Virus record (IMG/VR): IMGVR_UViG_2778261267_000001
From: a virus
Taxonomy: Duplodnaviria > Heunggongvirae > Uroviricota > Caudoviricetes
DNA length: 40,147 nucleotides
Reading direction: 5' to 3' (one strand)
The notes below the pieces were generated by a model. That model had not been told where the DNA came from, made no database searches, and saw nothing but the letters and a program-made list of their open reading frames with translations. Below, piece after piece: positions 2,796-6,420 of this stretch. The translations under genes and the position numbers were made by a program. Position 1 is the stretch's first letter. Each line of letters begins with the position of its first letter.

Positions 2796-3677
2796 TTACA
2801 TAGATGTTTCGTTTAATTCTTCCCGACGAACGCTGTAAACGTCGGTGGCTTTTGCCAGCAGTTCGTCATCATCTGAAAGTTTTTGTGCAATATATTTGTA
2901 AGCCTTATCCAGTTCGGAGATAGTGCTGTAATTCATCGCTGCGCTGGTAAAGGCCATCAGCATTTCTTCTGGATCACGGCTATCCGCTTTACGCGTTTGC
3001 TCATCAGGCTTTTTCACTGGTTTAGCGTTGATCAGACTGTTCATTCCCGCAGCAGTAGTTGTTTGCGGAGTAATGTCTCGCTCAACGCGCGGTGCCGTTT
3101 CCTGTAATTCGTCTGGGGTGTAAACACCGAGAAGTACATCAGGAGCGTGCAGGCGAGCCCATCGTTTCGTGCAAAGATAGGCAAGCTGCTGGCGCGGATC
3201 CTGTTCCCATAATGGAGAATTACGCACTCCGGCTTGCGCCATACTGATGGTAAGCTCACGGGGTTCTGCTTCTCCTTTAAGAATTGCTGACACAGTTACC
3301 GTCAGATTCGGTGATTTATCTGTTTTGCCGTTAACATTCGACCAGTCACCGCTCCAGCGATAATTCAGGCGTGTCGCCAGCAGGCTGGAAGAGGATACGA
3401 CCGCGTTTACCAACTGTGCTTCGTAGCCTAACGTTCCGTTTACCACATGCGTTTTCTGCGCCACGGCGAAAGGGTTCATTCCCCACTGTGCCGCCTGCAT
3501 GGTCACCGCCAGGCAATCGGCAGGTTTGCCTTCAAGATGTCTCGGTACAGTCGCTTTGCTTTGTGACATCAACTCAGCGAAACGCACCAGTTGATTCATG
3601 CCCTCGGGGCTGAAGATTGCCGCAGCAGTGCCTACAGTTGCGCCTGGTTGTGATGTGATTGCGATATCATTGCTCAT
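2796..3677 (-). CDS. RecT-like single-strand annealing protein
   Basis: 293-aa ORF directly downstream of and overlapping the exonuclease gene (classic RecE/RecT pairing). Family call is from sequence character and size, not from a search. Confidence 0.7.
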   Translation of the reverse strand: MSNDIAITSQPGATVGTAAAIFSPEGMNQLVRFAELMSQSKATVPRHLEGKPADCLAVTMQAAQWGMNPFAVAQKTHVVNGTLGYEAQLVNAVVSSSSLLATRLNYRWSGDWSNVNGKTDKSPNLTVTVSAILKGEAEPRELTISMAQAGVRNSPLWEQDPRQQLAYLCTKRWARLHAPDVLLGVYTPDELQETAPRVERDITPQTTTAAGMNSLINAKPVKKPDEQTRKADSRDPEEMLMAFTSAAMNYSTISELDKAYKYIAQKLSDDDELLAKATDVYSVRREELNETSM

Positions 3678-4495
3678 ACGTACATATCCTGTTTACGTGC
3701 CCAGTCAGGGCGTTTAATAATTTCCACTCCGCCCCACTCATCGTTGATGCGGCATTCGTGATAGGTATTCAGATCCCGGCGGAACAGAGCGTGCCCGGCA
3801 TCGACATCCGGCGCATCCAGCTCGAACACGCGTACCGGATAACGACCACAATCAATGCTTTCGCTCACGGCAAGAAAGAAAAAACCATGCGGCTGACCAG
3901 TAATCCTCATTGCGCCTTCGCGGTACATTGCGTCCTGCACGTGGTAGCGGAATTCCTCTATGTGGCGTGCAAAACGGTCCATATCTGCAACCTTTTTCAC
4001 GTCGACGATCACGTTGTGCTCGTTCAGCCATTTGTCTGGACGAATGCGGCACAACTCACCAGTCTCTTCATCGTTCCAGTACATTGATGCTTCGCAGTAA
4101 CCAGGTGCTTCCAGCATCCAGCGTGCCGCCGGGTGAGCCATTGCGCTATCACGCATCAGCTCCAGTTTCCGCCACTGCTCGGCATCAAGTACCGTAATCC
4201 CCATATCCGCCACATCACGAAGAAATGCCTCTTCGTCAGCTTTACCTTGTTTCGTCCGACGATCGAATTTCGGTGAAACAATGAAGCGTTTGTCGAACTC
4301 TCCAGGCTCCAGAAGCAGACAGTGCAATGCGGTTCCCATATCCAGTGCCGACTTTTTCTCTTCGTCTTCTGGTGCTGCCTGAACCCATTTAAGAAGCGCC
4401 GGATTCTTGGCAACCATGTCCAGTTGCGACTTACTCACGCCGTCACCGGCGTGGTAGTCTTTGTTGCTGATGTTGAAATAAATTCCCGGTTTCAT
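3674..4495 (-). CDS. RecE-C-terminal-like PD-(D/E)XK exonuclease (exodeoxyribonuclease VIII-like)
   Basis: 273-aa ORF with N-terminal YFNISNKDYHAG segment and a central D...E.K-type motif (IVDVKK), as in DUF3799/RecE-like phage exonucleases; paired with the RecT-like gene. Confidence 0.7.
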   Translation of the reverse strand: MKPGIYFNISNKDYHAGDGVSKSQLDMVAKNPALLKWVQAAPEDEEKKSALDMGTALHCLLLEPGEFDKRFIVSPKFDRRTKQGKADEEAFLRDVADMGITVLDAEQWRKLELMRDSAMAHPAARWMLEAPGYCEASMYWNDEETGELCRIRPDKWLNEHNVIVDVKKVADMDRFARHIEEFRYHVQDAMYREGAMRITGQPHGFFFLAVSESIDCGRYPVRVFELDAPDVDAGHALFRRDLNTYHECRINDEWGGVEIIKRPDWARKQDMYV

Positions 4496-4791
4496 GCCGC
4501 ATCCCTCTGCCCATCAAGCTGATCAGCCAGATCCCAGCGGGCGATAATTGCCATTGCCTCTCGCCGATAGGCATCCATCAGTTCTTCGAACTCAGGGCTG
4601 TCTTTAGCAGCCTCCAGCACTTCCTGACGAACGCCTTTGCCTGTTACAACGTCGAAAGTTGAGGACAGTTGATGAAGTCGGATGCTCTCAATCAGTTCAA
4701 CTTGTCGGTCATATAGCTGTTCTGACAGGCGGTAGTCCTTGTCGAATGCCAGCATGATTTTTTGAAGATTTTTCTGCTGATTAACGTTCAT
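4492..4791 (-). CDS. Hypothetical early protein (99 aa from the MNVNQQ start)
   Basis: ORF with a GGGAGGG Shine-Dalgarno 6 nt upstream of the ATG at 4791; the track's longer start at 4806 lacks an RBS. Start is translationally coupled to the stop of the upstream 50-aa ORF. Confidence 0.5.
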   Translation of the reverse strand: MNVNQQKNLQKIMLAFDKDYRLSEQLYDRQVELIESIRLHQLSSTFDVVTGKGVRQEVLEAAKDSPEFEELMDAYRREAMAIIARWDLADQLDGQRDAA

Positions 4792-4793
4792 TA

Positions 4794-4946
4794 TCAGCCC
4801 TCCCATATCTCGTTATCGTTGGCCACATCGCGAGCTTCTTTGCTGACGAAAGCCCACTTAATGCCTTCCTGTAAGGTGCGGAACTTCCAGCTCATGAATC
4901 CGCATGCAGTAACGCAGTACCAACCGTTGATGATTTTCCACTGCAT
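4794..4946 (-). CDS. Hypothetical 50-aa protein, first gene of the leftward early operon
   Basis: ORF below the track's size cut-off, read by hand (MQWKIINGWYCVTACGFMSWKF...). GAGG RBS about 10 nt upstream; immediately downstream of two operator-like palindromes. Confidence 0.4.
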   Translation of the reverse strand: MQWKIINGWYCVTACGFMSWKFRTLQEGIKWAFVSKEARDVANDNEIWEG

Positions 4947-4965
4947 AATTTGTTACCTCGGTCTG

Positions 4966-5042
4966 TTACCGTTGAGGTAATGATTATGCGTATCTGGTTT
5001 GATGTCAATAGATATGAGTTAAAAAAATTACCCATAAGGTAA
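4966..5042. promoter_or_regulatory. Leftward early promoter/operator region (OL-like) with two perfect TTACC-N5-GGTAA palindromes
   Basis: Perfect palindromes at 4966-4980 (TTACCGTTGAGGTAA) and 5028-5042 (TTACCCATAAGGTAA), plus a TTACC half-site at 4953-4957. Located between the repressor terminator and the first leftward gene. Confidence 0.6.
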
Positions 5043-5052
5043 TCTTGCTGAC

Positions 5053-5078
5053 AATAAAAAAGCCGCCATGAGGCGGCT
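5053..5078 (-). terminator. Intrinsic terminator downstream of the repressor gene
   Basis: Stem AGCCGCC / GGCGGCT (5061-5078) with a 4-nt loop, followed on the minus strand by a T-run (plus-strand AAAAA at 5056-5060). Confidence 0.7.
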
Positions 5079-5099
5079 TACTTACTGAAAAATATGATT

Positions 5100-5684
5100 T
5101 TATTGTTTGTTTTTTTCGTTCTGGCTGATGACAAATTCAATGTAACTTTCGATCTTTGCCTTCTCTGTTTCGGGTAACAATGCGTAGCGCGAGCGGTCAT
5201 AGTTGATAGTCGCAGGGTCGTGCGGGTGAATCAGTAATTCATAGCCGTGACGCCCGAATGCGGATGCAACATTCTCCAGGGTGGAAATGGAAACGCTGAC
5301 CTCATTGTTTAACAGGCGGCTGATTGTCACCTGGGCGACGCCGGATGCGCGGTGAAGTTTTCCCTGAGTTGAAAGGTCGCGGCTTTCGCTCATCCAGCGT
5401 TCCAGGTTGTGAGCCGCCAGCTGACCAATGTCGCTTGGGCCGACAGGCTGAAAACCTTCCTGAGAAAGCGAGCGATCGATATCAAGCCAGTTACGGGGTT
5501 TATTGGCGGCAGCTTCAATTTTTCGCGCAACCTGGTCGCCGATAACCTTCTTGCCAAGAGCCCAGCGGTTTACCAGATTTGCCTGAGTTCCAAGTTTTTC
5601 TGCCATCCGCGTCTGAACACCATTGAATTCACGGTCGATCAAGTCGTTGAGATTTTGCCTGCGGACGTCCTGGATACTTTTCAT
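5100..5684 (-). CDS. CI-like phage repressor (HTH DNA-binding protein, no obvious peptidase domain)
   Basis: 194-aa ORF divergent from a cro-like gene; HTH-like segments (MAEKLGTQANLVNRW, VAQVTISRLLNNE). Operator-like palindromes lie on both sides of the gene. Confidence 0.7.
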   Translation of the reverse strand: MKSIQDVRRQNLNDLIDREFNGVQTRMAEKLGTQANLVNRWALGKKVIGDQVARKIEAAANKPRNWLDIDRSLSQEGFQPVGPSDIGQLAAHNLERWMSESRDLSTQGKLHRASGVAQVTISRLLNNEVSVSISTLENVASAFGRHGYELLIHPHDPATINYDRSRYALLPETEKAKIESYIEFVISQNEKNKQ

Positions 5685-5739
5685 TTTCTGGAAAATCGCC
5701 TCATATATGAATCAGTAGATGATTCAATTTAAAGCAATA

Positions 5740-5802
5740 TTACCCAACAGGTAAATGCACCCCATAGGTAACTATCCTTGATTTTTGTTACCTTATGGGT
5801 GA
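5740..5802. promoter_or_regulatory. Divergent immunity promoter/operator region (OR-like) with three tandem operator-like sites
   Basis: Perfect TTACCCAACAGGTAA at 5740-5754, imperfect GCACCCCATAGGTAA at 5756-5770 and TTACCTTATGGGTGA at 5788-5802. A candidate rightward promoter (-35 TTGTTA 5786-5791, -10 TATTAT 5808-5813) overlaps the third site. Confidence 0.65.
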
Positions 5803-5838
5803 ATATTTATTATCTGAAATAAATATCAGGCAATAGCT

Positions 5839-6069
5839 ATGAGCGATAACGGACATTTCGATTTCAAAAAGCACTGGCTTGCACTTACTCCGGATGAGCG
5901 TGAAGCCTTCGCACAGGAAGCCGGAACGACGAGTCACTATATCCAGACTCACTTAACAGGTAAGCGCAAAATGCCAGGTAAGGTATTGATGAATGGGCTT
6001 TTTAAAGCCTGTAAATCAAGACAATGGTTGCGCTCAAAAGCAGAACTGGCATACTTCTTCTACTCATGA
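5839..6069 (+). CDS. Cro-like small regulator (76 aa)
   Basis: Small ORF divergent from the repressor, immediately downstream of the operator cluster and followed by a terminator; call is by position and size. Confidence 0.55.
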   Translation: MSDNGHFDFKKHWLALTPDEREAFAQEAGTTSHYIQTHLTGKRKMPGKVLMNGLFKACKSRQWLRSKAELAYFFYS

Positions 6070-6090
6070 TATCCAGCCACAACCCTCTGT

Positions 6091-6116
6091 AGACCGCCAT
6101 CCGGCGGTCTTTTTAT
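6091..6116 (+). terminator. Intrinsic terminator after the cro-like gene (tR1-like position)
   Basis: Stem AGACCGCC / GGCGGTCT with loop ATCC (6091-6110) followed by TTTTT. Confidence 0.7.
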
Positions 6117-6219
6117 ATCTATTCGCACCTCAAAGGTAATAAAAAACCAAATTTGGTTGATCTTTTTTTTGTGTCAGCACAAAATAACCGTAATCCCAAT
6201 ACTAATAACAGGGCTTACC

Positions 6220-6420
6220 ATGGAAATCATTACACGTATTGATGCCGCAAAGCGCGGACTTAAACGCTACTACACCGGAAAAACATGTAAGCACGGACAT
6301 GACAGTGAACGCTGGGTTTACAACGGACACTGTGTTGAGTGCACCATGGAATCAAACCGTCGCATCAGGGCAGAGATTAAGCAGATCATGATTAATTCCT
6401 CCCCACAACACTCAAGCTGA
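6220..6420 (+). CDS. Hypothetical small Cys/His-rich protein (cII position)
   Basis: 66 aa from the ATG at 6220; the track's upstream extension from 6157 is hydrophobic junk. Contains CKHGH...HCVEC spacing suggestive of a zinc ribbon. Confidence 0.45.
   Translation: MEIITRIDAAKRGLKRYYTGKTCKHGHDSERWVYNGHCVECTMESNRRIRAEIKQIMINSSPQHSS

Follow-up and report, generated by a model that had tools for sequence, protein, structure and literature searches.

A recombination-module-associated protein and a promoter-proximal protein encoded in the leftward early operon of a Uetakevirus prophage

The 40,147-nucleotide (nt) stretch of DNA analyzed here (IMG/VR record IMGVR_UViG_2778261267_000001; hereafter the window, at its full length) is a temperate podophage prophage of the phiV10/epsilon15 type (genus Uetakevirus), residing beside guaA, and we consider the first two genes of its leftward early operon, which encode proteins of 50 and 99 amino acids (aa). 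Our analysis has shown that these genes are two separable, independent modules. The 99-aa protein belongs to a family that accompanies recombinase genes, and we tentatively propose, at a probability of about 0.4, that it acts as an acidic helical dimer on a conserved host factor of DNA-end processing, favouring phage recombination. For the 50-aa protein, a host-takeover or regulatory role is plausible. The original prediction, made from the sequence of the window, had joined the two genes into one promoter-proximal set; such a set does exist in the window, but it does not hold as a unit, since the 99-aa family tracks recombinase genes and not the promoter-proximal slot.

The 99-aa family is narrow, as an exhaustive HMMER search of 1.84 billion representatives with a diverse profile yielded only 34 proteins. 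In every recovered context its gene immediately precedes that of a recombinase. In the window and in loci L007, L016, L106 and L109 it is followed by genes of a DUF3799 exonuclease and RecT, and in epsilon15 and loci L003-L006 and L107 by those of a YqaJ exonuclease and RecT. In L015 (P0190; hhalign 98.6%) the RecT gene comes directly after it, and the preceding 43-aa open reading frame (ORF) is unrelated; in L014 (P0196; hhalign 95.8%) it is preceded by a CIII-like gene and followed by the gene of a Sak4-like AAA_24 ATPase. A lambdoid prophage (L108, P0175) has the order S24 repressor, 126-aa ORF, KilR, 100-aa homologue, DUF3799 exonuclease, RecT, and the 50-aa gene is absent from it. The 100-aa homologue fills here the slot of Rac RacC (91 aa), which is encoded directly upstream of recE, after kilR and ydaE; RacC shows no similarity to the family and, on reading its sequence, does not look like an all-helical acidic protein. 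The linkage to recombinases across unrelated backbones indicates that the 99-aa family belongs to the recombination module, in the position of lambda gam, so that "recombination-module protein" fits the 99-aa gene better than the generic host-takeover label given to it previously.

Within the Uetakeviruses the exonuclease may be of the DUF3799 or the YqaJ type, while the 99-aa gene stays put. Epsilon15 and Enterobacter phage Tyrion have a common type of the 99-aa protein, yet the exonuclease is YqaJ in the former and DUF3799 in the latter; likewise, a Klebsiella prophage (L003) and phage BUCT554 have a common 99-aa type and differ in the type of exonuclease. This independent assortment of the 99-aa type and the exonuclease/RecT type suggests a host target rather than a phage partner, and the family is probably not tailored to one recombinase. 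The same observation bears on an explanation by which the 99-aa protein would assist the phage recombinase directly, as a cofactor similar to Arf or Abc1 of P22, for instance a loader bridging SSB-coated single-stranded DNA to the annealase and leaving host enzymes uninhibited. Such a role would agree with the strict adjacency and translational coupling of the 99-aa gene to recombinase genes of four kinds, and there is a precedent, as Arf and Abc1 are small proteins of the P22 recombination module aiding recombination by unknown means (PMC12315714). Still, a specific fit to a recombinase is hard to reconcile with independent assortment and with the presence of the family beside the unrelated Sak4-like ATPase. 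Moreover, the 99-aa protein has no sequence similarity to Arf or Abc1 (hhalign probability at most 1.1%, also for Abc2), and we consider the cofactor role unlikely.

The 99-aa protein of the window has an isoelectric point (pI) of 4.7 and a net charge of -6, and the family is acidic throughout (pI 4.55-4.86, net charge from -5 to -8). Conserved sites are the GVR loop, the EFEE motif opening the last helix, and the C-terminal motif W-D-L-A-D-Q-[IL]-D-x-x-R-x-A-A. Structure prediction, which had been suggested as a check, was run with AlphaFold2 (AF2) on family alignments, and gave models of low confidence for both proteins. The 99-aa model consists of a helix at residues 3-51, a short helix at 56-63 and a helix at 66-98 (predicted local distance difference test, pLDDT, 67). 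Both long helices are amphipathic by eye, which suggests a helical hairpin that may dimerise. The C-terminus of the core family is Ala-Ala-COOH (window positions 4492-4500), invariant in the family alignment. Ala-Ala ends are also seen in unrelated proteins of early-left operons, namely Ral (..KAA) and Ea10 (..KAA) of lambda, and Kil (..HAA) and gp17 (..TAA) of P22. By analogy with recognition signals of ClpX, the terminal Ala-Ala could be an ssrA-like degron of ClpXP, shortening the life of early proteins.

In the mechanism that we propose, the two-helix-turn-helix (two-HTH) repressor would leave both operators, turning on the sigma-70 leftward early promoter (PL), and both genes would be expressed immediate-early, coupled with those of the exonuclease and RecT. 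The 99-aa protein, having no particular partner among exonucleases and annealases, would target a conserved component of DNA-end processing in the host (a nuclease, or the SSB/repair machinery) and channel phage DNA ends and 3' tails into phage-directed recombination, thereby playing the role of a "guardian or modulator" of the Gam/GamL/Abc kind in the broad sense. A complete Gam-style block of RecBCD is less likely, because the genome is rich in Chi sites (see below), and partial modulation, or SbcCD or ExoI as the target, is more likely. The 50-aa protein, as the Uetakevirus-specific first gene product of PL, might bind a highly conserved target by its invariant Trp/Cys-rich N-terminal half, and would then be a host-takeover or regulatory peptide of the Kil or CIII kind and not an antiterminator. 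More doubtful is the most far-reaching form of this reading, in which the 99-aa proteins are a sequence-orphan recombination-module class of enterobacterial temperate phages, found with four unrelated recombinase set-ups and acting in a Chi-compatible manner on a host end-processing enzyme (inhibition of SbcCD or ExoI, or re-tuning of RecBCD), and the 50-aa protein is a new host-takeover peptide whose Trp/Cys-rich motif acts on a conserved essential host protein. If the former were true, the phage "recombination guardians" Gam, GamL, Abc2 and MuGam would be joined by the 99-aa family as a fifth kind. Modulation of host end processing by the 99-aa protein would explain how RecE/RecT-type modules lacking Gam work in recBCD+ cells, and could be of use for improving double-stranded DNA recombineering, while a conserved host target of the 50-aa peptide would make it a compact new inhibitor.

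As a more specific possibility, the 99-aa protein would do exactly what lambda Gam or phi80 GamL does: as an acidic helical dimer, it would plug the DNA channel of RecBCD (perhaps, of SbcCD) and protect linear phage DNA for RecE/RecT. The gene is exactly in the gam position, 5' of the exonuclease and annealase genes, which gam also adjoins in the early-left operon of lambda, and in lambdoid contexts it comes after CIII-like or KilR genes. Lambda Gam, phi80 GamL and P22 Abc2 are all small early-left proteins of recombination modules, as is the 99-aa protein; its size is close to that of GamL (93 aa) and of GamS, the short form of lambda Gam (98 aa), and it is acidic and, by the model, helical, like Gam and GamL. 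Moreover, neither the annotations of phiV10 and epsilon15 nor the operons that we examined contain a known anti-RecBCD gene. As there is no sequence relationship among the four known anti-RecBCD families (PMC12315714), the lack of similarity is not disqualifying for a Gam analogue. For lambda Gam, the hhalign probability is 5-12% and BLASTP aligns 33 aa only (pairwise E=0.002); for GamL, the values are 0.2% and E=5.6; and a Foldseek search of PDB and BFVD, Gam structures included, gave no matches for the 99-aa model, a result that says little, as the query was an all-helix model of low confidence. In addition, the net charge of -6 is below that of classical DNA mimics. A likeness of the C-terminal helices to Gam, seen by eye, was rejected as helical or compositional resemblance, as BLASTP aligned another segment and the hhalign probability did not exceed 12%.

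The gene order around insertions into the operon also bears on the Gam analogy. Accessory genes have been inserted between the 50-aa and 99-aa genes or after them, encoding a 344-aa protein (phage phiv142-3), a 57-aa phrog_6396 protein, and a 45-aa zinc-ribbon-like ORF. Coiled-coil inserts of about 320-345 aa lie between the two genes, as in phiv142-3 (Orf45; L012, 1959-2993), and same-site inserts of 319-337 aa are found in L016 (264-1244), L106 (3980-4993) and L109 (4034-4993). The phiv142-3 insert immediately precedes the 99-aa gene and shares 55% identity (E=2e-97) with Agt/Mog of phi80, and both this insert and the one in L016 match phrog_1376, the PHROG of Mog. In the phi80 record Mog is described as "anti-toxin for Gam; modifier of Gam" and is encoded directly upstream of gamL-recT-exo, hence phiv142-3 mirrors the phi80 arrangement mog-gamL-recT-exo, with the 99-aa gene in the place of gamL, in agreement with a Gam analogue. 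The window and 76 of its 80 close relatives in IMG/VR lack the Mog-type insert. The 57-aa phrog_6396 ORF lies between the two genes in a metagenomic relative (L007, 5147-5320) and by eye resembles phi80 gp44 (PHI80_44; L017, 7970-8170; shared pattern NGK.Y...KL....W.L..VSNPR); it is another small mobile gene of the early operon.

Several observations weigh against the functional part of our reading. No sequence or structural match ties either protein to any characterised protein, and the functions proposed for both are drawn solely from gene position and composition. To the low-confidence hairpin of the 99-aa protein should be added the AF2 model of the 50-aa protein, a single helix with pLDDT 58, judged unreliable, and nothing that we found points to a target of the latter protein. 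Mog homologues, present in 154 phage records, lie before Erf or RecT modules in many phages, including Erf modules for which there is no Gam analogue (D3 orf53, Sf6 gene 33, EhrS_49), and thus adjacency to Mog marks a recombination module rather than Gam; Mog itself looks like a general recombination-module protein. Finally, the plus (late-gene) strand of the window carries 8 Chi octamers (GCTGGTGG; positions 865, 19986, 23454, 25256, 28430, 28845, 30677 and 32051) and the other strand none, which argues against a Gam-type function.

The number of Chi sites expected from shuffled sequences is 1.1, with a maximum of 4. The numbers on the two strands are 8/0 in phiV10 and 6/0 in epsilon15, and 0/0 in P22, which encodes Abc2. 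The density in these phages equals the average for the E. coli chromosome, which is about one Chi site per 4.6 kilobases, and selection in the prophage state could contribute to it. In the survey by Zheng et al. 2025 (PMC12315714), a genome rich in co-oriented Chi sites was the typical state of those lambdoid phages that have no anti-RecBCD gene; the Chi-rich phages included the group (prototype Gifsy-1) that encodes a nuclease plus an annealase but no such gene, and the Chi-rich state was about 7 times likelier without it (PMC12315714). By this lambdoid yardstick, from a survey that did not cover Uetakeviruses, the latter look like the "Chi-rich, no anti-RecBCD" class and would exploit RecBCD rather than silence it. 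The window, phiV10 and epsilon15 differ in this respect from P22 and from most phages with an anti-RecBCD gene. The Chi richness decreases the probability of a Gam-type block roughly sevenfold compared to what would be expected from gene position, and we regard a true Gam analogue as improbable, while the preferred action on host end processing does not require RecBCD to be blocked completely.

The 50-aa gene behaves differently. We found it in no other setting than immunity regions of the Uetakevirus type, where it is invariably the first ORF past the operator, and this position holds across two different operator/promoter types. The N-terminal part of about 33 residues is nearly invariant (MQWKIINGWYCVTACGLMSWKFRTL..), with residues M1-G16, including C11 and C15, fully invariant in the family and the N-terminal half rich in Trp and Cys, while the C-terminal part of about 15 residues is variable. 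The pI of the window protein is 6.1, and the family ranges from neutral to basic, with 10-19% of aromatic residues. In the first 26 codons the rate of non-synonymous substitutions (dN) is 0.016-0.09, while the adjacent 99-aa gene, over the same pairs of the window and its relatives, has values of 0.41-0.49.

This pattern is relevant for the idea that the 50-aa ORF is mainly a cis-acting leader, delivering ribosomes to the coupled downstream genes, and that the peptide has no function. Such a leader would require tight coupling to the gene that follows, and this is indeed conserved, by way of a gap of 2 or 4 nt or of an overlapping GTGA. But amino acids are constrained while synonymous positions change freely, with 9 synonymous differences and 1 non-synonymous one in the first 26 codons between the window and Tyrion; the conserved N-terminus and the variable residues by the stop codon are the opposite of what is seen in arrest peptides; and the 50-aa gene persists despite a 1-kilobase gene inserted after it. 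A functionless leader is therefore very unlikely.

One or both proteins might instead be anti-defence or host-takeover factors unrelated to recombination, such as anti-restriction proteins, inhibitors of an abortive-infection sensor, or cell-division inhibitors. Consistent with this are the immediate-early position after PL, as judged from the predicted promoter and operators, the small size of the proteins and the absence of a known fold, the fact that the flanking junctions accept accessory genes (the 57-aa and 45-aa ORFs and Mog), and the presence of ral, kil and cIII in the same operon of lambda and P22; the invariance of the N-terminal half of the 50-aa protein would be in keeping with a conserved host target. 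However, anti-defence genes are usually variable and patchy, and no member of the genus lacks either of these two; neither protein matches any PADLOC family at E<=1, and no link to defence or takeover was found in the literature searched. Moreover, the linkage of the 99-aa family to recombinases across unrelated backbones is better explained by a recombination role. We give this explanation low odds, though better ones than those of the cofactor or the Gam analogue, and an anti-defence function of either protein is purely conjectural.

The original prediction stated that neither protein resembles N, Kil or Gam-like proteins, and this is confirmed by our profile and BLASTP comparisons, also for CIII, Ral, GamL, Abc1, Abc2, Arf, RacC, YdaE and KilR. 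The profiles of both families were compared by hhalign with 50 proteins of early-left operons and their neighbourhoods from lambda, P22, Rac, phi80, Sf6, EhrS_49, GZ7 and D3, with negative results throughout. The panel included N, Kil, CIII, Ral, Ea10 and Gam of lambda; gp24, Kil, C3, Ral, gp17, Arf, Abc1 and Abc2 of P22; RacC, YdaE, KilR and RecE of Rac; and GamL, Kil and Mog of phi80. The probabilities did not exceed 1.1% for Kil of lambda, P22 and phi80, KilR of Rac and CIII of lambda and P22 (with no Pfam match either), and 0.4% for lambda N and P22 gp24. Searches of Pfam (E<=1), NCBIfam, and PDB by sequence and by profile retrieved nothing meaningful for either protein. In size class and early-left location the 50-aa protein is similar to lambda Kil, Rac KilR, lambda CIII and lambda N. 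Unlike N, it is neither basic nor arginine-rich, it does not have the amphipathic motif of CIII, and Kil-type proteins are usually far less conserved than its N-terminal half.

Other candidate identities were considered and set aside. An N-type antiterminator is disfavoured by the pI values of 4.7 and 6.1, the absence of an arginine-rich motif, and the leader being only about 27 nt; the distance from the -10 hexamer to the ATG of the 50-aa gene is about 33 nt and is occupied by the operator, and an N-like role is unlikely. That either protein is an N-terminal fragment of RecE is not supported, as there is no match to Rac RecE and no RecE profile among the PHROG matches. The 50-aa protein has a lipobox-like VTAC at residues 12-15, but the preceding segment is weakly hydrophobic (the highest Kyte-Doolittle mean over 15 residues of the protein is 1.1) and invariant, unlike signal peptides, so a lipoprotein or membrane peptide was rejected. 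Resemblances at the pattern level to the "WK.I.G.Y.VS..G" motif of NUMOD4, noticed by eye, and to the YC..AC half-site of the zinc-binding YdaE were supported neither by hmmscan nor by hhalign.

Both ORFs are genuine protein-coding genes under purifying selection. By tblastn, they occur in the same 36 phage records, each record with either gene having both, and the hosts are Escherichia (16 records), Salmonella (12), Klebsiella (4) and Enterobacter (3). The concern that the ORFs might not be conserved in related prophages can thus be set aside, as both are present genus-wide. In 76 of 80 IMG/VR relatives, a set of near-identical loci used for the census of insertions, the start-to-start spacing is exactly 155 nt. 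Codon alignments comprised the window, epsilon15, Tyrion, BUCT554, the Klebsiella prophage, the metagenomic relative and phiv142-3, the pair of the window and phiv142-3 being near-identical and hence uninformative for the ratio of non-synonymous to synonymous rates (dN/dS). Between host genera, dS is mostly 0.3-2.5 or saturated for both ORFs, and dN/dS is 0.04-0.48, the only exception being the 50-aa ORF in epsilon15 versus BUCT554 (0.94). The record of Tyrion gives, in place of the 50-aa gene, a 70-aa ORF on the opposite strand (gp39; L010, 2251-2463), which looks like a mis-annotation, as the substitution pattern favours the 50-aa frame.

All genes of the operon are on the minus strand. The 50-aa ORF (4794..4946) and the 99-aa ORF (4492..4791) start with ATG and are followed by genes of a RecE-like PD-(D/E)XK exonuclease (3674..4495; DUF3799 and phrog_412 "exonuclease VIII") and a RecT-family single-strand annealing protein (2796..3677; PF03837), both assigned by profile matches, which upholds the position upstream of a RecE/RecT-like pair. 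The stop codon TGA of the 50-aa ORF (4794-4796) is separated by 2 nt from the ATG of the 99-aa ORF, whose Shine-Dalgarno sequence GGAGGG (4798..4803) lies within the 3' end of the 50-aa ORF, and the ATG of the exonuclease gene overlaps the stop of the 99-aa ORF as ATGA (4492-4495). Judging from these junctions, which relatives retain with a gap of 2 or 4 nt or with overlapping GTGA, the 50-aa, 99-aa, exonuclease and RecT genes form a translationally coupled chain, as had been predicted for the first two. The Shine-Dalgarno sequence of the 50-aa ORF, GAGGT (4955..4959), is 8 nt before the ATG and is kept in relatives. A longer, 104-aa reading of the 99-aa ORF, starting from 4806, is possible but unsupported, as both the homologues and the PHROG profile begin at MNV.

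The genes are the first two after an operator-controlled leftward promoter, as proposed originally. The PL-like promoter (4980..5008, minus strand) consists of the -35 box TTGACA (5003-5008), a 17-nt spacer and the -10 box AATCAT (4980-4985), and is also found in Tyrion, BUCT554 and phiv142-3. It is flanked by two perfect TTACC-N5-GGTAA palindromes: the OL1 operator-like TTACCGTTGAGGTAA (4966..4980) abuts the -10 hexamer and spans the expected transcription start, and the OL2 operator-like TTACCCATAAGGTAA (5028..5042) lies upstream of the -35 hexamer. The gene of the two-HTH prophage repressor, identified by profile matches (5100..5684, minus strand), is followed by an intrinsic terminator (5060..5079, minus strand) situated between this gene and PL; as the repressor gene ends in its own terminator, PL is a separate, repressible promoter. 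The palindrome occurs 11 times in the window (starts at 4966, 5028, 5740, 5788, 8071, 8133, 13328, 13346, 16492, 33433 and 36943), versus 0.68 expected, and no shuffled sequence reached 11. The sites between the repressor gene and the cro-like gene are among them, and in the epsilon15 record repressor sites are annotated at positions equivalent to the window operators. Further palindromes precede a DUF1064 gene (8071, 8133) or lie within the late region, suggesting repressor control of several promoters, in line with the annotation of epsilon15.

By megablast, the region 4400-5100 is 95-97% identical to Escherichia phage phiV10, O157 typing phages 9 and 10, TL-2011b, ZX5 and others, and the locus is carried by 561 of 5426 complete E. 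coli genomes (~10%). In an annotated E. coli chromosome, the element adjoining guaA has the order int, DUF1382, MT-A70, PerC, AlpA, RecT, PD-(D/E)XK nuclease, two hypothetical proteins, HTH repressor, and divergent cro-like gene. The 50-aa ORF corresponds to gp39 of phiV10 and gp37 of epsilon15, and the 99-aa ORF to gp38 and gp36, respectively. Both proteins are 100% identical to those of phiV10 (tblastn against the phiV10 record), and the identities with epsilon15 are 79% for the 50-aa protein and 50% for the 99-aa protein; gene order and coupling in both phages are the same as in the window, with no difference of substance.

The two genes are already catalogued as hypothetical proteins in PHROG 856 and PHROG 898, both of "unknown function": the 99-aa ORF matches PHROG 856 along its full length (E=1.9e-55, residues 6-104 of the 104-aa reading on profile positions 1-99/99), and the 50-aa ORF matches PHROG 898 (E=1.9e-38, residues 1-50 on 1-50/50). 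All records examined label both genes as "hypothetical protein", and no published functional study of either gene was found in the literature searched. The locus is carried by well-used phages, among them phiV10 reporter phages, epsilon15, SPN1S and SPC32H, and both genes are blank in every annotation. New here are the verified operon signals, the demonstrated selection, the distinction of two modules, the assignment of the 99-aa family to the recombination module, the Mog synteny, and the Chi richness of the genus. What results is a more precise annotation of the pair, as a Rec-module-associated protein and a PL-proximal, Uetakevirus-specific one, rather than the discovery of a function, and the two genes are a reasonable pair for experiments.

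In the window, as in the RefSeq annotation of E. coli, the exonuclease and RecT are encoded by separate overlapping ORFs (2796-4495); the reference record of phiV10 has a single 1761-nt RecE-RecT fusion gene (PhiV10p37; L001, 2836-4596), either a real fusion or a result of a frameshift or a sequencing difference. An Rfam scan of the region 4300-6300 retrieved no family, only sub-threshold matches driven by the terminator hairpin. A strong intrinsic terminator (6091-6110, plus strand) lies right after the 76-aa cro-like gene, and beyond it, ahead of the replication genes, there is an operator-like half-match (at about 6127-6141). The rightward early region may be split into separately repressed units rather than depend on antitermination.

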